A stretch of 64,000 nt of DNA, from positions 3,903 through 67,902 of the forward strand of contig JAYEGE010000010.1 of assembly GCA_034658935.1 (NCBI GenBank). The letters are read 5' to 3'. This document shows, in pieces, positions 3,935 through 50,718 of this stretch. Every line of letters starts with the position of its first letter. Position 1 is the stretch's first letter. Position numbers and translations under genes: made by a program. The notes below the pieces were generated by a model, which worked only from the letters and a program-made list of their open reading frames with translations, was not told the DNA's origin and did not search any database. This DNA comes from Patescibacteria group bacterium. Its GTDB lineage: Bacteria; Patescibacteriota; Minisyncoccia; Phycocordibacterales; JACOZG01.

Positions 3935-5725
3935 ATGGCTAAGAAATGGCGGCTTTTACCGCAAAAAGAGGGGGATCTACAGAGTCAGCTACTCGCTAAT
4001 CGCGGCCTATCTAAGGGTGAATGGGGTGATTGGCTGGAGCCGAACTATGAGCGAGATGTCCACGATCCCTTCTTAATGAAGGATATGGACAAGGCCATTA
4101 AACTGGTTCTTGAAAGTGTGGAGCGCGGCGATCGGATCGCCATCTTTGCTGACTATGATGCTGACGGAGTGCCGGGTGCGGTGATCCTGTCAGAATGGTT
4201 AAAGCGAGTTGGTCATACTAATTACGAAGTTTATATTCCTCATCGTCATGAAGAAGATTATGGGCTCTCTATCAAAGCGATAGAGGGATTGGCGGCCAAT
4301 GGCTGCAAGATTTTAATTACTATTGATTGTGGGATTACTAATGTTGCTGAAGTGGCGCGAGCTAAGGAGTTAGGAATGAAAGTTATTGTTACTGATCATC
4401 ATCTCTTATCGGATACGGTTCCATCCGCAGATGCAATTCTTAACCCCAAACAAGCGGACGACGAGTATCCGGAAAAAATGCTCTGCGGCGCCGGAGTCAT
4501 TTTCAAATTGGCGCAAGGACTACTAAAGGCCACAACGAGTGGGGCAGATTTTCGCGGCTTTACCCTAAAGGGCTCCCTGCCCGAAGTTGCTACATCGTCG
4601 CAGGCGGGCGACGCCGAGTCTCCGCCGCCCACCAAAGCAGATGACGCCAAGTCTGCACTCGCGTTTGGAAAATGGCTGCTCGACTTAGTGGCGATTGCTA
4701 CCGTTGGCGACATGGTGCCATTGCGTGGTGAGAATAGGGCCCTAGCTTATTTTGGTCTTAAGGTATTGCGCCGCACTCGTCGCCCTGGGCTCATTAGTCT
4801 CTACCGCCTATTGCGCCTGGACCCAACGCATCTTACTGAAGATGATATTGGTTTCTCGATTGCTCCGCGGATTAATTCGGCCAGTCGGATGACTCATGCC
4901 GAAGAGGCTTATGAGCTCTTGAGTACCGCTGACCCGGCTCGAGCGATGGTCCTGGCCGAGCATTTAGAAAAAAAGAATAAGGAACGGAAGCAATGGGTGG
5001 AGAAGATTCTACAAGACGAAGCGGTGCTGGAAATTGCCCAGCAGGACTCGCCGGTACTGGTGGCGGGGAGTGAGGATTGGAACTTGGGTGTGTTGGGTTT
5101 GGCCTGTGCTCGCTTGGCGGAAGAGCATTATCGTCCCGTCTTCCTTTGGGGTAAGAATGGTAGTGGGTTAATAAAGGGCTCTTGCCGTTCAGATGGCAAT
5201 ATTAATGTGGTTGAATTGATGAAGGGCGCCGCTGAGGGCTTATTTGCTAAGCAAGGTGGCCATGCGATGGCGGGTGGCTTCTCCGTCACGCCTGAGCGCT
5301 TGGGCGAGTTGTCTGATGAACTTAATAAGTCTTACGCCAAGTTAACTGCCGGCTCTGACGAGATTGAGGAAGCAGAATTGCCACTCGATTATGTTTTGCG
5401 GCTGGCTGATATTAATGAAGACACTAATGCTCTGGTCTCCGCCCTCGCTCCTTACGGGATGGGTTTTAATAAGCCGCTCTTCTTATTGTCGCAGGTTAAA
5501 TTGCTGGGGCGGCGCAGTTTCGGGGCCACTAATAATCACTTAGAGCTAACGGTGGGGGATGGTGAGTTTTCAGTTAAGGCGGTGGCCTTCTTCCAAGCGA
5601 ACACCTTCACTGATATTTTAAATAATCACTCGATGCTCGACTTGGCTGTCCACTTAGAAAAGAGTTATTTCCGTGGCCGCCCCGAACTCCGTCTCCGCCT
5701 CACCGACCTCCGCCCCTCAGGCTAG
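3935..5725 (+). CDS. recJ: Single-stranded-DNA-specific exonuclease RecJ (DHH/DHHA1 family)
   Basis: Contains IFADYDADGV (DHH motif I), VTDHH (DHH motif) and a C-terminal DHHA1-like region. Length is 596 aa. Confidence 0.85.
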   Translation: MAKKWRLLPQKEGDLQSQLLANRGLSKGEWGDWLEPNYERDVHDPFLMKDMDKAIKLVLESVERGDRIAIFADYDADGVPGAVILSEWLKRVGHTNYEVYIPHRHEEDYGLSIKAIEGLAANGCKILITIDCGITNVAEVARAKELGMKVIVTDHHLLSDTVPSADAILNPKQADDEYPEKMLCGAGVIFKLAQGLLKATTSGADFRGFTLKGSLPEVATSSQAGDAESPPPTKADDAKSALAFGKWLLDLVAIATVGDMVPLRGENRALAYFGLKVLRRTRRPGLISLYRLLRLDPTHLTEDDIGFSIAPRINSASRMTHAEEAYELLSTADPARAMVLAEHLEKKNKERKQWVEKILQDEAVLEIAQQDSPVLVAGSEDWNLGVLGLACARLAEEHYRPVFLWGKNGSGLIKGSCRSDGNINVVELMKGAAEGLFAKQGGHAMAGGFSVTPERLGELSDELNKSYAKLTAGSDEIEEAELPLDYVLRLADINEDTNALVSALAPYGMGFNKPLFLLSQVKLLGRRSFGATNNHLELTVGDGEFSVKAVAFFQANTFTDILNNHSMLDLAVHLEKSYFRGRPELRLRLTDLRPSG

Positions 5726-9017: not shown

Positions 9018-9875
9018 ATGTCGCGATGCTGGAAGATTGCTTGGGTGGGGGTCGCAGTTTTATTGATCGGGAATATTTTGGTTTGGAGTGCTGTGGCGCG
9101 GGAAGAGCGTGGGGGAGTGCTGCAGGTAGCCTTCCTTGATGTTGGCCAAGGTGATGCTATTTATATTGAAGCACCCAATGGTAATCAAGTGTTGATAGAT
9201 GGCGGCCCCGGCAAAGCTGTCTTACGTCAATTGCCACAAGTGATGCCTTTCTACGATAAGTCTATCGACCTACTTATCGCCACCCATCCCGATGCCGACC
9301 ATATATCTGGTCTGGTATCGGTATTGGAGCGCTATCAGGTCGATTATTTCATGGAGCCCGGTGTGGAAAGCGAGACGGGAGTTTACCGAGCCTTGCAAGA
9401 AGCCGTTCAAGAAGAAGGATTAGAATCAGTTCTGGCTAGACGGGGGCTGAGAGTTAACTTAGATCCCGAGCGGAACGTCTACTTAGATATTCTATTTCCT
9501 GATCGCGATCCTAAAGGTTGGAAGAGCAATGATGCTTCTATCATTACTAAGCTGAGTTACGGCCGACACTCTTTCTTATTAACCGGGGACGCGCCTAAGA
9601 AGATGGAGCAATACGTGAGCGAGCTTAATGCCGCTGGCTTGGCGGCCACCGTACTCAAGGTCGGCCACCATGGTTCTCAGACTTCCTCTGATCAAGAATT
9701 CGTATCTGCTGTCAGTCCAGATTACGCGGTGATTTCTGTTAACGCAAATAATCGTTACGGCCACCCACATCAGGTAGTGCTCGATACCTTAGACCAACTT
9801 AAAATAAAAATTTTAGATACCACCGAGGGCAATATCCAATTTGAGACGGACGGAATTAATTTGGAACTTATTTGA
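9018..9875 (+). CDS. comEC: ComEC C-terminal metallo-beta-lactamase domain, encoded as a separate ORF with its own signal-anchor helix
   Basis: N-terminal TM helix, then DVGQGDAIYIE and HPDADHISGL (the MBL HxHxDH motif) and VGHHGS. It is homologous to the C-terminal domain of full-length ComEC. Confidence 0.75.
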   Translation: MSRCWKIAWVGVAVLLIGNILVWSAVAREERGGVLQVAFLDVGQGDAIYIEAPNGNQVLIDGGPGKAVLRQLPQVMPFYDKSIDLLIATHPDADHISGLVSVLERYQVDYFMEPGVESETGVYRALQEAVQEEGLESVLARRGLRVNLDPERNVYLDILFPDRDPKGWKSNDASIITKLSYGRHSFLLTGDAPKKMEQYVSELNAAGLAATVLKVGHHGSQTSSDQEFVSAVSPDYAVISVNANNRYGHPHQVVLDTLDQLKIKILDTTEGNIQFETDGINLELI

Positions 9876-10065
9876 TTGCTAAGTGCTTATTGGCCTTGAT
9901 GCACTTGGTACAGATACGAGCTCGGCCGCCTGCGGGTAGGGTGACCCATTGGAGATTAACCTGACGGCGGCGTTTGCCGGTCGGGTTGAATTTAGTGGCA
10001 CGGACGCGGTTGGAATATCCGCCTCCTACTTGGCTAGTTTTGGCGCAAGTCAGACAACTTTTCAT
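9868..10065 (-). CDS. rpmB: 50S ribosomal protein L28 (Zn-ribbon C+ form)
   Basis: Contains CLTCAKTSQVGGGYSNRVRATKFNPTGKRR...RICTKCIKA, matching L28 with two Cys pairs. The start was trimmed to the internal Met of the 77-aa ORF. Confidence 0.8.
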   Translation of the reverse strand: MKSCLTCAKTSQVGGGYSNRVRATKFNPTGKRRRQVNLQWVTLPAGGRARICTKCIKANKHLAIK

Positions 10066-41356: not shown

Positions 41357-41386
41357 GGCCAGTAGTATAGCAGAGTTGGTTTGGAC

Positions 41387-41889: not shown

Positions 41890-42579
41890 CTAGTTGTTGC
41901 GCCCGCCCCCAAGTATTTTTGCTACGAGCGCTTCGTAAATAGTGACATCACTGCTTTTCATTATCGCCTTAGAACTAAAGATATCGGAGGCGTTTTTCAG
42001 GAAATCTTTTTGAATTTCTGGATGTTCTTTGCTTTCGATAATGTGCTGGTAAGATTGAGCCAATGTTTTTCGGTTGGCGTAGTCAATTCTAAGATTACCC
42101 AAGTGGGAATGTTGTTTAAGCGCGTATACAAAGACAGTTAAGAAAACGATGTTAAGTAGATAAAGTCCGGGTTCTTTGTACCAGATAACATCAAAATCGT
42201 AGATAGTTGGTCCAAAAAATGACACCAGGATTGATGCAGAGAGTAGGATGGTGGTGCCTATACCTATTTTAAACCAAAAGCTCTGTTGGCCCTTATAATC
42301 TTTTTCTTGTTCTGCATAGGCCGAAGCAAATCTACTCAACTCCATGACTCTTAATTGCTCCTCAGTTTTGGAAATCCTTTTTTCTAGGACGTCTACTTCT
42401 GACACGAGTTTGGTGTTTTCGTCTTTTAGCCCCGCAGTTTTTTTATCCGCAGCGGTTTTTTGCTTTAGATTTTCGTCGCTGAGATTAGTAAATTGTTCTT
42501 CTAGGACGGTGATTGCCTTGTCTTTCTGGAGGCCTCTCTTTTGTTCTTCGTGATAGTCACGCTTGTAGGATCTTGTCAT
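41890..42579 (-). CDS. Hypothetical membrane protein (N-terminal coiled coil, two TM helices)
   Basis: A charged heptad-like N-terminal 110 aa, then two hydrophobic helices. No family recognised. Confidence 0.45.
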   Translation of the reverse strand: MTRSYKRDYHEEQKRGLQKDKAITVLEEQFTNLSDENLKQKTAADKKTAGLKDENTKLVSEVDVLEKRISKTEEQLRVMELSRFASAYAEQEKDYKGQQSFWFKIGIGTTILLSASILVSFFGPTIYDFDVIWYKEPGLYLLNIVFLTVFVYALKQHSHLGNLRIDYANRKTLAQSYQHIIESKEHPEIQKDFLKNASDIFSSKAIMKSSDVTIYEALVAKILGGGRNN

Positions 42580-42580
42580 G

Positions 42581-42880
42581 TTATTTTTTGTGCTGTTTGT
42601 TAAACCTCGGGGCTTCTTTGCCGATAATCCGTTTTTCTATTTGTAGGGCTTGGGGCTTGTTCTCTACCTGAGCAACCTTGAACTTAGTCCCGCCGGGGAT
42701 GTGATCTTTCTTGAACTGTAGATGGTTTGTGAGGCGCTGTTGCACGTTCCCCCTACCTGCCACTCCGGTATACAGGTTTTCCCCGGCATTGTTAGTAAGC
42801 TCGTATACGATCGTTTTGTTTTTGGGCACTTTTGCGACGTTGGTTTTGTCGAACTTTTGTGGGCGGTTAAATTTGATCAT
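42581..42880 (-). CDS. Small GIY-YIG (URI-domain, YhbQ/COG2827-like) nuclease-domain protein
   Basis: IVYELTNNAGENLYTGVAGRGNVQQRLTNH matches the GIY-x10-YIG-x8-R-x2-H pattern, plus a downstream conserved Glu region. Confidence 0.5.
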   Translation of the reverse strand: MIKFNRPQKFDKTNVAKVPKNKTIVYELTNNAGENLYTGVAGRGNVQQRLTNHLQFKKDHIPGGTKFKVAQVENKPQALQIEKRIIGKEAPRFNKQHKK

Positions 42881-42961
42881 AGTGTGGATAAGTTATTTAC
42901 ATTACTAATATTGTTTGCTAACATTCAAAATATAGCATATAGAAAATAAATAGCAAACTTA

Positions 42962-43618
42962 ATGCTTACTAAGAAACAAAAAAGCGTTTTTGACTACATT
43001 AAGCGGTATGCGGAGAAGAATGAATATGCTCCCTCCCTCGAAGAGATCCAGGGGCATTTTAAGCTCGCCTCTGTCTCAACGGCCTTCTATTACATCAATA
43101 GGTTGGTGGAGGGCGGGTACCTAAAGCGAGAGGCCCATCAGGCTAGGTCGATAAGTGTCCAGCCAGATGAGGTGATTAAGTCAGCCCTTCCAAAACAGAT
43201 AAAATCCTTTTCTGTTCCAGTGCTTGGTTCGGCCAATGCTGGCGAGGCAGTCTTACGTGCAGAAGAAAATATTGAAGGGCATCTCAGGGTCTCTCGTCGT
43301 ATATTAAGTGGGAAAGACGGAGTCTTCGCTCTGCGTGTTAAGGGTGATTCAATGAACAGGGCAAAAATAGATGGTAAAAATCTTGAAGATGACGATTTCG
43401 TGCTCATTGATTCGGAGTATAAAAGTCCCAGAGATGGTGACTATGTCTTGTCTGTTATAGAAGGCCATGCCAATCTCAAGAAATTTAAGCGAGACGGTAA
43501 AACTGGTCAAGTTACGCTTATTTCTGAGTCGACGAATACCAAACACAAACCGATTTTTATTTCTGGCGACGATGATTTTATGATAAATGGTAAAATAATA
43601 AGTGTGGTGAAGAAATGA
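42962..43618 (+). CDS. lexA: LexA-like repressor (winged-HTH plus S24 peptidase domain)
   Basis: N-terminal LTKKQKSVFDYIKRY...SLEEI (LexA DNA-binding domain), VKGDSMN (Ser nucleophile) and NLKKFKR (Lys). Its stop overlaps the MTase start (ATGA). Confidence 0.8.
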   Translation: MLTKKQKSVFDYIKRYAEKNEYAPSLEEIQGHFKLASVSTAFYYINRLVEGGYLKREAHQARSISVQPDEVIKSALPKQIKSFSVPVLGSANAGEAVLRAEENIEGHLRVSRRILSGKDGVFALRVKGDSMNRAKIDGKNLEDDDFVLIDSEYKSPRDGDYVLSVIEGHANLKKFKRDGKTGQVTLISESTNTKHKPIFISGDDDFMINGKIISVVKK

Positions 43619-44769
43619 CTTTTATGAAGAAGAATATAACCCACAAACTCGCCGAATTATTTTCAGGTCCTGGCGGTTTATCGCTAGGTATTGTTTCTGC
43701 TGAAGCGGAAGATTTGGGGGGCAGGAAATATAGTGTAAGCTCGCTTTGGGCAAATGATATAGATGAGGATTCCTGCAATACTTATGCGAAAAATATACAT
43801 AATGGCGATAGAACCAACGTTTTATGCTCCCCAGTTGAAAAAATTGATTTTAAAAAGGTGCCAAAATTTGATGCACTCGCTTTTGGATTTCCGTGTAATG
43901 ATTTTAGTATAGTGGGAGAGCAGAAGGGTTTCGGTGGTAAGTATGGACCTTTATACACCTACGGTGTAAAAGCAATAAAGGAACACAACCCCAAATGGTT
44001 CATTGCTGAAAACGTCAGTGGCCTGCAAAGCGCAAACAATGGTGATGCTTTTGGGAAAATACTCGACGATTTAGAAAATGCGGGGAATGGATACGTACTT
44101 ACACCCCATCTATATAAATTTGAGGAGTACGGTGTTCCTCAGACGAGGCATAGAATTGTCATAGTCGGCATAAGAAAAGACCTCGGTCTTGAATTTAAGG
44201 TACCGACTCCCACTACTTTAGATGGATACGTTACGGCTAAGTCGGCCATTGAAGAACCGCCAATCTCAGAGTCTGCTCAAAACCACGAGCTTACAAAGCA
44301 GGCAAAGATTGTTGTAGAAAGGCTGAAACATATCCCTCCAGGCGAAAATGCCTGGTATGATGGTTTACCTGAACACCTAAGGCTCAACGTAAAATCTGCA
44401 CGTATGAGTCAAATTTATAAACGACTACATCCCAAGAAACCGTCATACACGATAACGGGAAGTGGCGGTGGGGGAACACATGGGTATCATTGGACAGAGA
44501 ATCGTGCCCTTACAAATAGGGAGAGGGCTCGCATTCAGACCTTTCCTGACAGTTTTATATTTGATGGCTCTAAGGAGAGTGTGCGAAAACAAATAGGCAT
44601 GGCCGTACCGGTCAGGGGGGCGAAGATTATCGCGGAGGCCGTGCTTAAAACTTTTGCGGGCGTTACTTATGAATGGATTCCACCCAGAATAACAAATGGT
44701 AACGGTCGTGATAAAAGTAATACTAAACAGACACCACTGTTTAATAAAACTGACCTACAGCCTGTTTAA
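43615..44769 (+). CDS. DNA (cytosine-5)-methyltransferase
   Basis: Motif I LFSGPGGLSLG, motif IV FGFPCNDFSIVG (PC dipeptide), motif VI ENV, and a C-terminal TRD. Confidence 0.9.
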   Translation: MTFMKKNITHKLAELFSGPGGLSLGIVSAEAEDLGGRKYSVSSLWANDIDEDSCNTYAKNIHNGDRTNVLCSPVEKIDFKKVPKFDALAFGFPCNDFSIVGEQKGFGGKYGPLYTYGVKAIKEHNPKWFIAENVSGLQSANNGDAFGKILDDLENAGNGYVLTPHLYKFEEYGVPQTRHRIVIVGIRKDLGLEFKVPTPTTLDGYVTAKSAIEEPPISESAQNHELTKQAKIVVERLKHIPPGENAWYDGLPEHLRLNVKSARMSQIYKRLHPKKPSYTITGSGGGGTHGYHWTENRALTNRERARIQTFPDSFIFDGSKESVRKQIGMAVPVRGAKIIAEAVLKTFAGVTYEWIPPRITNGNGRDKSNTKQTPLFNKTDLQPV

Positions 44770-45591
44770 AAGTTCCCGCCAACTTTTTTTATCTCGGTGA
44801 AGTCGGCCCGATTTGATGACGTATCTGTGGCCGTCGAAAGTTTGACCTGGGATAGAGGTTACTTTCTCAAGTTCATCCTTGTAACAATATCCTGCTATTT
44901 CGCACGGGATATTACCTAGATCAGGAATATCATTCTTGTATTTGTCATAGTGCGGTTGACCTGAGACAAGTTTGGTTATCTCGGACTTTGAGACTCGCAA
45001 TAAATGGTCGTCTTCTAGGGCTGGTCGACAGTATATATAAACGTCAGAGCTTCTTTCGGGTATCTCGACCTCGTTCCCGCCCAGTACGAGGTACGCACTT
45101 TTGGGCTTGGATGATTTAATGCCTACTCCTATTGAGGGTTCTACCCATTTGCTCCTTTTTAGCACTTTTGTTATATCTTGCGGAACAATGTTGGGGTGTA
45201 TATCAAAATCTAGCTCTACGCTGACGTTAAATTTCTGTTTAAAAAATTTTTGAACAGCAATCTCGCCCAACTGTCCCTTTACCCAATTTGTAACTTTTTG
45301 ACCAAATTCCCTGATTCTACTGGTGCCCCAATCAGAAGTTACATATCCTCTAAAATGTTGTGCTAACACAAAGTCCATACATCTGGCGTAGTCATCCCTA
45401 TCGAGGGCGATAGTCCTTTGGTCGTAATCTTTTCTCCATTCTTCCAGATCGGTTTTATTAAACGTAAATCTACCTCTTCCCGCTCTGGGTAGTGGAGTTA
45501 TCTCGTCCGCATTTTTGAAGTAATTCTCAAAAGTTTTCTCGTCTAGTTCGAGAAATTTCACGGCTTCTTTTTTAGTCAAGATATCTGGCAT
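44755..45591 (-). CDS. Putative restriction endonuclease with an N-terminal excisionase-type HTH (HTH_17-like)
   Basis: It is convergent with and overlaps the 3' end of the C5-MTase gene. The N-terminus LTKKEAVKFLELDEKTF...RFTFNKTDLEEWRK resembles the phage Xis/MerR-type HTH. The C-terminal domain is unassigned. Confidence 0.45.
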   Translation of the reverse strand: MPDILTKKEAVKFLELDEKTFENYFKNADEITPLPRAGRGRFTFNKTDLEEWRKDYDQRTIALDRDDYARCMDFVLAQHFRGYVTSDWGTSRIREFGQKVTNWVKGQLGEIAVQKFFKQKFNVSVELDFDIHPNIVPQDITKVLKRSKWVEPSIGVGIKSSKPKSAYLVLGGNEVEIPERSSDVYIYCRPALEDDHLLRVSKSEITKLVSGQPHYDKYKNDIPDLGNIPCEIAGYCYKDELEKVTSIPGQTFDGHRYVIKSGRLHRDKKSWRELLNRL

Positions 45592-45825
45592 AACAATACA
45601 TTTGTAATTTTCACTATGCCCGATTCCCGTCGATTTTTCAAGCTACTCTCTCGTGACGGCACAGCCTGGTCTCGCATTTGGGCGGACGCTTCGCTATCTC
45701 ACTCGCTACGCCCCGGCATATGCGGCTCCGCTCTTTCAAAACCCACGGTTTTGAATAATTTCCTCCACGGGGAACTCCCGTTCCCCGACCCCCTCCCTGG
45801 TTCGATTCCGCCCATCTCACTGCTT

Positions 45826-45926: not shown

Positions 45927-46349
45927 TGGTGGAGATGGGCGGAATCGAACCGCCGTTCAAATAGTTGTTGTAAGAGAATCTACGTGTGTAGCTAGTTTTT
46001 TGTTTTAAGCTCAGTACCTATAAAGCCAGCAAAACAATACTGAGCCGGACCTCTAAGTTTTCGGATCCTTAGCGAGATAGACTAAGGGACCTAGCTCGCG
46101 AGAATTACACTCTAGTCCGCGGCACGAGCGCCTGACGGGTAGAATGCCTACTTAAGCCTACAACACTAAAAGTGTCGGCCGGCGCTGAAAGCGCTTAGGC
46201 TAAAGCGAAAGCAGGGGTGAAGTATGGCGAAGCCACACCTCGGTCAGATGAATTGGCATTTATCTGGTTTGCCAACAGGTTTACGAGTCTTTTGGCCTCC
46301 TCGACACGCACACTTAAAACAGGACTACCTGTCTAAGCCGATCATCCCC
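45927..46349 (-). ncRNA. ssrA: tmRNA (SsrA)
   Basis: On the minus strand the 5' end is GGGGAUGAUCGGCUUAGACAGG, a shape comparable to E. coli GGGGCUGAUUCUGGAUUCGACGGG. A PK1-like CGAGGAGGCC...CUCGUAAA is present. The candidate tag ORF is ...GCU UUC GCU UUA GCC UAA (…PAFALA*). The 3' end is GGCGGUUCGAUUCCGCCCAUCUCCACCA, which is T-arm, acceptor and CCA. It lies immediately downstream of smpB. Confidence 0.75.
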
Positions 46350-46350
46350 A

Positions 46351-46794
46351 TTATTGGTTTTTCAAGGTTCGCTGGATCTCGATATCCGTCTCGCGTTTCT
46401 TGATGATACTGCGCTTGTCGCGTTTCTTCTTACCTCGGGCTATAGCTAGCTCTAGCTTCAAGCGTCGTCCTTTATTATACACAGCAAGCGGGATAATTGT
46501 CAACCCCTTCTTATCCTCAACTCCCCCTAATTGTTCCAATTCCTTTTTCGTTAGTAGTAGCCGGAGATTGCGGTCTCCCTCATGCCCCTCAGGTATGTTT
46601 TTGGCTTGGTAGGGATGGATACTCGCGCCAACTAAATAGGCTTCACCCCCACGGACAAGGACTCGAGACCCAGTCAAATTAGCTTCACCGGCGCGGAGGG
46701 ATTTCACTTCATGGCCATAGAGTTCTAGGCCCGCTTCAAAGCGCTCAAGAATTTCGTAATCAAAACTAGCCTTTTTGTTGCTTACCAGGGCCAT
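46351..46794 (-). CDS. smpB: SsrA-binding protein SmpB
   Basis: Contains FDYEILERFEAGLELYGHEVKSLR and a C-terminal basic tail. Confidence 0.95.
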   Translation of the reverse strand: MALVSNKKASFDYEILERFEAGLELYGHEVKSLRAGEANLTGSRVLVRGGEAYLVGASIHPYQAKNIPEGHEGDRNLRLLLTKKELEQLGGVEDKKGLTIIPLAVYNKGRRLKLELAIARGKKKRDKRSIIKKRETDIEIQRTLKNQ

Positions 46795-50645: not shown

Positions 50646-50718
50646 GTGCCCATAGCTCAATGGTTAGAGCGCCAAGCTTATATCTTGGTGGTTCCAGGTT
50701 CGAGTCCTGGTGGGCACA
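50646..50718 (+). tRNA. tRNA-Ile with anticodon UAU (AUA-decoding). No CCA is encoded.
   Basis: Hand-folded cloverleaf. Acceptor GTGCCCA/TGGGCAC, D-arm GCTC-AATGGTTA-GAGC, anticodon stem CCAAG/CTTGG with loop CTTATAT (U33, A37), T-arm CCAGG-TTCGAGT-CCTGG, discriminator A. Confidence 0.7.

Follow-up and report, generated by a model that had tools for sequence, protein, structure and literature searches.

Restriction-modification (R-M) systems need the methylase to act ahead of the nuclease, otherwise the host is killed. The known means of control are C proteins, methylases that carry a helix-turn-helix (HTH) domain, and antisense RNAs, and to our knowledge the condition of the host DNA is not sensed by any of these. 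Control of defence by DNA damage is known from CapH/CapP and from the WYL regulators. Patescibacteria have small genomes and few CRISPR systems. The block at positions 42581-45591 of the DNA analyzed here, a 64-kb stretch (the window) from a Patescibacteria metagenome-assembled genome, raises the question of what a LexA repressor does in front of the methyltransferase gene of an R-M system. In this block LexA is complete, its gene is tightly joined to that of a C5 cytosine DNA methyltransferase (M), the promoter is conserved and carries clade-specific half-sites, and the same gene order recurs before unrelated methyltransferases, including fusions of the two proteins. The answer that we consider likely is that the block is a type II R-M cassette located at the 3′-end of ssrA, in which M is the second gene of a lexA-M operon repressed by its own LexA, the convergent nuclease gene (R) has its own operator-free promoter, and RecA-triggered loss of LexA would derepress the methylase. 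Related loci are designated below by L numbers.

The lexA-M operon

The lexA gene (42962-43618, + strand; 218 amino acids; PF01726 and PF00717) is the first gene of the methylase operon. It is followed by M (43615-44769, + strand; 384 amino acids; PF00145), and the stop codon of lexA and the start codon of M overlap as ATGA. The NCBI call for M (P0317) has 381 amino acids and starts at an in-frame ATG at 43624, 5 nucleotides past the lexA stop. With either start there is no room for a separate M promoter between the two genes, which excludes one at that place. The gene of a 278-amino acid protein (44755-45591, - strand) is convergent with M, and the two overlap tail to tail by 15 bp. A previous reading of this DNA, made from the letters alone (the sequence-only reading), had described these open reading frames (ORFs) and both overlaps, and all of them were found again, the later NCBI start of M being the one divergent call. 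Its alternative, a solitary methylase regulated by the SOS response, does not agree with the presence of a nuclease partner.

The M protein covers positions 2-323 of the 324 in PF00145 (8e-74), that is, the full catalytic domain. It also matches the PADLOC profile MTase_II (PDLC03378, 3.2e-117) and TIGR00675 (192 bits), and its closest solved structures are those of M.HaeIII and M.HhaI. A search for the recognition site through avoidance of palindromes in the 64 kb showed no convincing depleted C-containing site. The same methylase family includes Vsr-C5 methyltransferase fusions (PF03852 and PF00145, about 502-506 amino acids; P0270 and P0292).

LexA was recognized by both Pfam domains (PF01726, 8.3e-12; PF00717, 1.1e-21) and scored 128.8 bits with the NCBIfam lexA equivalog TIGR00498, for which the cut-off is 110.95. 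It aligns end to end with the solved LexA structures of T. maritima (3k2z) and E. coli (1jhh). The cleavage site is Ala93-Gly94 and the dyad consists of Ser130, in the motif GDSM, and Lys173, in NLKKF. In an alignment of 27 members of the LexA clade, G94, S130 and K173 are invariant. The sequence-only reading had made its interpretation depend on the Ser/Lys dyad, which proved to be conserved on alignment together with the cleavage site. Judged by these alignments, the window LexA is a complete two-domain repressor, a winged HTH followed by an S24 autoprotease, with an intact cleavage site and dyad.

The lexA-M control region occupies 42883-42961 (+ strand). A promoter scan identified a -35 element, TTTACA (42896-42901), and an extended -10 element, TAACAT with an upstream TG (42919-42924). 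The operator half-site GTTTGCTA (42913-42920) overlaps the -10 element, and the half-sites TAGCATA (42933-42939), TAGAAAA (42940-42946) and TAGCAAAC (42951-42958) lie downstream of it. The sequence-only reading had proposed a palindrome in this region as a candidate LexA box. Its arms GTTTGCTA and TAGCAAAC are present but they do not form a single LexA box, being 30 nucleotides apart and too far from each other for one dimer. Nor are they rare, as the 8-mer of the arms alone has three matches in the window against 1.96 expected by chance. The significance of the arms comes from the comparative analysis of operators and not from the window, and that analysis leads us to reinterpret them as parts of a predicted arrangement of one inverted half-site and two to three direct half-sites.

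About 28 distinct regions upstream of lexA genes of the clade were compared. The common architecture consists of the 9-mer TGTGGATAA, a -35 element (TTGCAT or TTTACA), a 17-bp spacer and a -10 element (TATACT), with one inverted half-site over the -10 element and two direct half-sites 11 bp apart, 12-40 nucleotides before the ATG. The half-sites covary with the LexA recognition helix. Helices with the sequence SVSTAHYY are paired with TTAGAA and those with YPSSAHYH with TTTGAA, while SVSTA(S/F)YYIN, found in the window, L068, L069, L072 and L073, is paired with TAGAAAA..TAGCAA. The tandem half-site motif occurs once in the 64-kb window, with no further operator elsewhere in it, and in 586 kb of related loci it is found almost exclusively ahead of lexA. 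Such a search for operators at other places had been suggested by the sequence-only reading. No LexA half-sites were found at the nuclease promoter of the window or at the nuclease promoters of the loci scanned. This distribution predicts autoregulation of LexA through operators in its own promoter.

The 9-mer TGTGGATAA that opens the control region (42883-42891, + strand) is the reverse complement of the consensus DnaA box TTATCCACA. It is located just upstream of the lexA-M -35 element and is unique in the 64-kb window. It stands at the same place in about 18 of the 28 upstream regions of the LexA clade of the window, and was recorded at that position in L007, L024, L028, L032, L034, L045, L047, L050 and L068-L115, and inverted in L051 and L063. 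It is also present in several LexA clades with different operators, twice in the opposite orientation. This conservation suggests that a host factor, possibly DnaA, also acts on the lexA-M promoter.

The probable restriction endonuclease

The 278-amino acid protein matches the PADLOC profile REase_II (PDLC03411, E 2.7e-15) over residues 37-238. At its N-terminus there is a weak match to HTH_17 (residues 5-53), which remains under the Pfam cut-off. The protein has 628 homologs, nearly all of them 278-282 amino acids long, 59-66% identical and mostly from Patescibacteria. The residues invariant in this family include E110, D128, D139 (in PQD), K159, K162 (in IKSSKPK) and E174, a set that appears compatible with a variant of the PD-(D/E)XK motif. 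AlphaFold2 models were confident, with a predicted local distance difference test (pLDDT) of 90.5 when the entire protein was modelled and of 88.8 in the model of residues 61-278. When the models were compared with the PDB using Foldseek, the N-terminus of the full-length model was matched by MerR-type HTH proteins, and the top matches of the C-terminal domain alone were all PD-(D/E)XK nucleases, namely Hjc, SPARDA DREN, R.SwaI, BstEII and RecU, in every case with E>0.001. The best of them, Hjc, had a probability of 0.94, an E value of 0.037 and a template modeling (TM) score of 0.56 on the target.

The genomic behaviour of the gene is that of an R-M partner. Pairwise identities of R and M in the nuclease-family loci correlate with r=0.90, and R is adjacent to and convergent with M in nearly all loci that show both, the exceptions being L012 and L019. 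The possibility that the methyltransferase occurs independently of the nuclease, which the sequence-only reading had left for checking, is contrary to these results. On the strength of the profile match, of fold matches that are weak but consistent, and of this genomic behaviour, the protein is probably a type II restriction endonuclease with an N-terminal winged HTH of the MerR/excisionase type (approximately residues 1-58) and a C-terminal PD-(D/E)XK-like domain. The nuclease proposed by the sequence-only reading is in this way supported by the type II profile and by the nature of the best folds, but not by a fold match of statistical significance. The N-terminal HTH may have a role in recognition or in autoregulation.

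In two other loci (L086 2471-3508 and L113 4131-5171) a methylase of the same family (610-615 bits) is accompanied by a longer convergent gene of about 345 amino acids, which matches the 278-amino acid nuclease weakly (43-53 bits). These loci may represent a nuclease swap within one methylase family.

Recurrence of the LexA-methyltransferase pair

A scan of one genome per GTDB species identified 63 loci of the nuclease family among 185,579 species representatives. They were annotated with phmmer using the window proteins and a few others as queries, and 54 of the 63 were informative, that is, they had enough sequence beyond the methyltransferase gene. Three homolog contexts showed two layouts, both convergent with the nuclease gene: LexA-Vsr-C5 methyltransferase, and a 64-amino acid HTH_17 protein-Vsr-methyltransferase. 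LexA, whether separate, fused or as a remnant, was carried in 42 of the 54 informative loci. A separate LexA gene was located upstream of the (Vsr-)methyltransferase gene and on the same strand in 36 loci, with gaps of -23 to +41 nucleotides and a single one of +172. A LexA (S24) remnant was found beside a broken nuclease gene in one more. In the other five, one ORF of 566-613 amino acids contained the three Pfam domains LexA_DNA_bind, Peptidase_S24 and DNA_methylase (L031 8835-10676, L042 2525-4240, L054 8830-10530, L055 8822-10537 and L057 8842-10548, all on the - strand). These five LexA-S24-C5 methyltransferase fusions retain the AG site, GNSM and LK(K/R). A database search with one fusion returned at least 25 clusters of three-domain proteins of 562-578 amino acids (P0241-P0265), which had been called independently by JGI, ENA and Logan.

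The position upstream of the methyltransferase gene was occupied by other regulators in a few loci. A small HTH_17/MerR protein was found there in four of the 54 (L002, L065, L017 and L058), which shows that the slot can also be filled by protease-free regulators. In one (L043 2212-3175, - strand) it was occupied by an Xre-like HTH protein together with a Peptidase_M78 of the ImmA/IrrE type with the motif HELGH. Such an ImmR/ImmA-type pair in the same slot fits a damage-sensing role.

These loci bear on the possibility that LexA is a pure timing device, an autorepressor whose only effect is a burst of M early in establishment in the style of the M.SsoII-type HTH-methylases, with the S24 domain serving just for dimerization. 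The layout of the window, with operators over the -10 element and in the leader, is that of an autorepressor, there is the analogy with the autoregulation of HTH-methyltransferases, and the four loci with protease-free MerR/HTH_17 proteins agree with such a device. However, the separate LexA proteins linked to the nuclease form no fewer than five clades and have a median identity of 27%, and of the 37 that were aligned, 36 retain the (A/C)-G site and both dyad residues, Ser and Lys, the 37th (L044) being cut by a contig end. These residues are therefore conserved in every separate LexA that could be scored and in every fusion examined. Conservation of site and dyad across clades that are about 27% identical is unexpected if cleavage is irrelevant. 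The pair of L043, a damage-responsive HTH with an ImmA/IrrE M78 protein, also speaks against a pure timing device, which we regard as extremely unlikely.

The pairing was also sampled through LexA. The window LexA has 612 homologs at E<=1e-10, and the best 120 of them are 57-77% identical to it. In L068 LexA precedes a Vsr-C5 methyltransferase, with both the nuclease and the divergent GIY-YIG gene of the window; in L069 it precedes a Vsr-C5 methyltransferase with a PDDEXK_5 gene; in L070, a C5 methyltransferase with an LlaMI/BcnI-type gene; and in L071, an N6/Eco57I-type methyltransferase with a 392-amino acid gene, an HTH_3 gene and a serine recombinase gene. A metagenome scan with an alignment of the clade contributed the best 80 of 480 matches to an R-M-linked query. 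When LexA copies of at least 200 bits were dereplicated at 95%, 38 loci were informative, and in 31 of them a DNA methyltransferase gene was next after lexA, or next after Vsr. The methyltransferases confirmed by Pfam at this place are C5 (PF00145), N6_N4 (PF01555), D12 (PF02086) and Eco57I/TaqI_C (PF07669/PF12950), and an 846-amino acid fusion of C5 and Eco57I methyltransferases follows LexA as well. Usually, lexA and M are followed by R and then by an HTH_3 (C) gene, both in the opposite orientation, and often by a serine recombinase gene, and the nuclease families differ from locus to locus.

The sequence-only reading had considered an SOS-type self-cleaving repressor wired to an R-M methylase as an unusual arrangement. 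The same layout in most relatives, the occurrence of the clade before unrelated methyltransferases and the fusions all support it. That reading had, in addition, placed LexA where the C protein normally stands, and this assignment had to be abandoned. C proteins sit upstream of R, where an HTH_3 (C-type) gene is directly found in about half of the related loci, and many relatives have both an HTH_3 gene before R and LexA before M. LexA therefore seems to fill a distinct controller slot on the M side. The pairing recurs in many Patescibacteria whose methylases and nucleases belong to different families, and it suggests a protective methylase that is switched on by DNA damage.

The genes divergent from R-M-linked lexA genes vary and are often defence-like or related to damage. 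They include ThsB-type TIR, TIR-like with caspase-like, SMODS, DUF2130/DUF2188, and GIY-YIG with Lactamase_B-fold genes (examples are at L069 899-1315, L101 3485-4877, L003 9114-9896, L070 4233-5860 and L068 2746-4105). These genes share the LexA operator region and may be under LexA control too.

A probable portable module at tRNA and tmRNA genes

The LexA identities correlate weakly with those of R or M (r of about 0.35), and the median identity is 27% for LexA versus 69-73% for R and M. Where loci differ in R-M type and have unrelated flanks, their DNA is homologous (77-85%) from a point 90-130 nucleotides upstream of lexA to the lexA stop codon or at most 40 nucleotides past it. Since the homology is bounded in this manner, LexA and its promoter seem to behave as a discrete portable module of about 0.8 kb.

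The cassette itself has a preferred location. The ssrA gene of the window, which encodes the transfer-messenger RNA (tmRNA), was identified by ARAGORN and by Rfam (RF00023, 140 bits) at 45927-46349 (- strand), and is followed by smpB (46351-46794). The ssrA 3′-end (45927) faces the nuclease gene, and the block abuts it. A strong terminator is located between the two genes (45867-45840), and the promoter-like site of the nuclease gene, TTGAAA-17-CATAGT, is at 45613-45641 (- strand). The G+C content is 0.38-0.46 across 41.8-45.7 kb and approximately 0.50 in the flanks. In at least 16 related loci a tRNA gene, or in L026 the tmRNA gene, directly adjoins the nuclease gene with this orientation. 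The cassettes adjoin the genes of many tRNAs (Ser, Leu, Gly, Lys, Asn, Trp and Phe) or tmRNA, and the 3′-end always faces the side of R, or of C and the recombinase. The ssrA 3′-end is the probable integration target of the window cassette. L024 has the borders of such an island. Two 61-nucleotide direct repeats (5162-5222 and 9844-9904), which carry the 3′-end of tRNA-Ser (the gene is at 4962-5049), bracket 4.7 kb with the genes of the nuclease, the methylase, LexA, a 67-amino acid protein and a 389-amino acid coiled-coil (DUF2130-like) protein, without a recombinase gene inside. The left end of this island (CCAGATNTCCAA..GAACCGAAG) is common to L034, which has a 17-nucleotide repeat beyond LexA.

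Two repeats of the window were evaluated as borders and rejected. Between ssrA and the nuclease gene there is a perfect inverted copy of 20 nucleotides of the tmRNA 3′-end, from the T-arm/acceptor region (45799-45818, + strand, versus 45932-45951, - strand), 113 nucleotides from the real end and with the similarity confined to the 20 nucleotides. The copy had been noticed in the sequence-only reading, as had the adjacent tmRNA gene, and both observations were correct; it is inverted and not direct, and does not represent the usual direct-repeat boundary of an island. The 21-mers at 41364 and 41842 flank a NUDIX gene and look unrelated.

In many relatives the cassette is bordered by serine recombinase genes. 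Some of these genes are large, lie at the far cassette end and share about 15-70 nucleotides with the 3′-end of a tRNA gene for Asn, Arg or Trp (L103 7659-9218, L114 5355-6958 and L015 5844-7670), which hints at integration into tRNA genes mediated by serine recombinases. A LexA in such company could be the repressor of a mobile element, similar to SetR or phage CI, with RecA-triggered cleavage inducing excision or transfer of the island by the serine recombinase and the methylase being merely co-transcribed. The flanking recombinases, some of them overlapping tRNA 3′-ends, and the location of the island at ssrA agree with this explanation, as does the match of the S24 part of LexA to a PHROG transcriptional repressor family. 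The arrangement of the genes does not. The recombinase gene is at the far cassette end, beyond R and C, and tandem half-sites are almost absent outside lexA promoters. A recombinase is missing from the window and from many relatives, in which LexA is nevertheless intact. The constant partner of LexA is the methyltransferase and not the recombinase, and it is to the methyltransferase that LexA is fused. We consider a mobile-element repressor very unlikely.

On the other side of lexA there are two leftward genes. The one next to it (42581-42880, - strand) encodes a 99-amino acid GIY-YIG protein (PF01541, 6.5e-07), a small nuclease domain of the Cho/UvrC-N-like type, and the divergent pair that it forms with LexA is conserved in L068. 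This gene shares the lexA operator region, and because a leftward promoter-like site inside that region (42956-42929) points at it, it is probably co-regulated cargo. The second (41890-42579, - strand) encodes a coiled-coil/membrane protein of 229 amino acids, is located inside the low-GC block (0.39-0.44 in its stretch, approximately 0.50 in the flanks), and was not seen beside LexA in the other loci examined. Its product has no match in Pfam, NCBIfam, PADLOC or PHROG, and it is possibly island cargo of uncertain membership. An apparent synteny with L003, where S51 peptidase, acetyltransferase and NUDIX genes are near LexA as in the window, was attributed to coincidence (64 bits for S51 and none for NUDIX). 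Away from the cassette, just after ftsH, the window has a gene for tRNA-Ile with the anticodon TAT (UAU) at 50646-50718 (+ strand), and another one is found in L050 (1415-1488). This tRNA is uncommon in bacteria, where AUA is mostly read by a CAU tRNA modified with lysidine.

Resident or cassette-borne lexA

Several observations weigh against a cassette controlled by its own LexA. Regarding the nuclease, the comparison of its models with the PDB by Foldseek gave nothing at E<=0.001, so that support for a nuclease fold is weak, and sequence and profile searches of the PDB with the 278-amino acid protein found no match. Regarding the island at ssrA proposed by the sequence-only reading, the position against the tmRNA 3′-end and the deviating G+C content hold, but there is no direct repeat of the tmRNA 3′-end in the 64-kb window and the ORF list has no recombinase or integrase within 39-49 kb. 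According to the ORFs and Pfam, the cassette of the window has neither Vsr nor a C protein; there is no ORF between the start of the nuclease gene (45591) and ssrA, and a C-protein gene upstream of the nuclease gene is absent in the window, which leaves the delay of R at establishment unexplained here. Finally, LexA binding, RecA-dependent cleavage, induction of the methylase and nuclease activity are all properties that we infer from sequence comparisons.

Other points concern the range of the pairing. The frequency of 82% with which a methyltransferase gene follows lexA holds for this LexA clade and not for all Patescibacteria LexA. The genes next to more distant lexA genes (<~140 bits) are instead recA, thyA, toxin genes, and MazF-like or DinD-like genes. 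Solitary members of the clade are found in chromosomal contexts on long contigs (L080, L085 and L107), and in L080 lexA is directly beside a tRNA gene without R-M genes, which also fits a resident lexA with R-M genes plugging in downstream.

The latter observations lead to the explanation that the lexA gene is the resident housekeeping one, the master regulator of the SOS response, that R-M cassettes (M-R-C-recombinase) insert between it and a tRNA or tmRNA gene, and that the methylase rides on read-through without a selected regulatory purpose. In its favour are the solitary clade members and L080, whose homology with L075 ends exactly at the lexA stop, the TIGR00498 score above the equivalog cut-off, and the far greater divergence of LexA compared with R and M together with the weak correlation of the identities. 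Neither a second lexA nor recA or any other SOS gene is present in the 64-kb window. Against it, the upstream flanks of these loci are not syntenic, with homology from 90-130 nucleotides upstream of lexA only, while the unit adjoins many different tRNA genes or the tmRNA gene. The att-like 61-nucleotide direct repeats of L024 enclose LexA along with R and M. The lexA-M junctions are overlapping or 2-40 nucleotides long and always co-oriented, with at least five methyltransferase families. The in-frame LexA-methyltransferase fusions, which make up a clade of at least 25 clusters, are hard to explain without functional coupling, and the nuclease family is present in just 63 of the 185,579 species representatives, yet LexA is found in 42 of its 54 informative loci. 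We therefore judge a resident lexA with inserted R-M genes unlikely, and a LexA that belongs to the cassette remains the interpretation that we prefer.

Proposed mechanism

If M is controlled by the LexA of its own cassette, the following sequence of events can be envisioned. Upon entry into a naive cell there would be no LexA, the operon would fire and the genome would become methylated. As LexA builds up, M would be held at a low maintenance level. RecA filaments on single-stranded DNA would then cause the self-cleavage of LexA; they could originate from cleavage of unmethylated self sites by the nuclease, from repair synthesis with its unmodified product, or from phage attack. M would be derepressed, in the relatives together with Vsr and here probably together with the divergent GIY-YIG gene. 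The outcome would be a feedback by which damage is sensed and protection restored, equivalent in type II systems to restriction alleviation.

A wider proposal is that LexA and its promoter, with clade-specific operators and a consensus DnaA box, constitute a portable cassette by which the type II R-M systems of Patescibacteria, as well as defence genes next to them, are generally controlled from the M side, with RecA-sensed induction of the methylase, possible tuning to replication by DnaA, and the LexA-methyltransferase fusions as a switch in a single polypeptide. We put this forward tentatively, as something possible that falls somewhat short of probable.

Should the proposed mechanism be true, an R-M system would sense its own collateral damage or unmodified repair DNA and raise protection in response, and a feedback of this kind is undescribed for type II systems in the literature searched. 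Considering its breadth, with dozens of loci at the species level, five or more methylase families and no fewer than 25 fusion clusters, it would be a major regulatory theme of Patescibacteria defence. It also bears on the evolution of LexA regulons, as LexA would travel with its promoter as a module, and it provides a set of operator variants, each with its corresponding LexA recognition helix, that can be tested.

Comparison with known systems

No description of LexA-linked R-M systems was found in the literature searched in full text, which excluded the work on the LexA network of Patescibacteria by Sanchez-Osuna et al. 2017 (Environ Microbiol 19:3465), to which PMC8565304 refers. A 2013 review of R-M regulation mentions LexA for toxin-antitoxin systems only. 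A true LexA linked or fused to a type II methylase looks like a new variant of damage-controlled defence.

The cassette shares with the C-protein R-M systems, such as those of the PvuII, BamHI, AhdI and Esp1396I type, a small dedicated DNA-binding regulator inside the cassette that determines in which order and how strongly M and R are expressed. However, C proteins belong to the Xre-type HTH proteins, share a transcript with R and have neither a protease domain nor damage sensing, whereas here a full LexA is co-transcribed with M. The methyltransferases with an N-terminal HTH (M.SsoII, M.EcoRII, M.MspI and M.Ecl18kI type) are similar in that M is repressed by a linked DNA-binding module, and the LexA-S24-methyltransferase fusions share their domain logic. 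The module described here is a self-cleaving LexA, a separate polypeptide in the window, and its repression should be reversed by RecA-stimulated proteolysis.

Compared with the canonical SOS LexA (TIGR00498; E. coli, B. subtilis and T. maritima), the protein agrees in its two domains, in the Ala-Gly site and the Ser/Lys dyad, and in the operators carried by the lexA promoter. The differences are that the operon partner is an R-M methylase, that gene and promoter seem to move as a module between unrelated flanks, and that the operator consists of TAGAAA-type half-sites, one inverted and two direct, the latter 11 bp apart. The liberation of a defence or mobile-element operon by a repressor inactivated upon damage is a property that the cassette would have in common with CapH/CapP of CBASS, the BrxR/CapW WYL regulators, SetR of SXT and ImmR/ImmA. 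Unlike these, most loci described here have a true LexA, and the gene controlled is the protective methylase and not an effector. The proposed purpose, to protect unmodified self DNA resulting from repair, is that of type I restriction alleviation, in which ClpXP degrades HsdR. In the type II cassette analyzed here, the same purpose would be served by transcriptional induction of M, without proteolysis of R.

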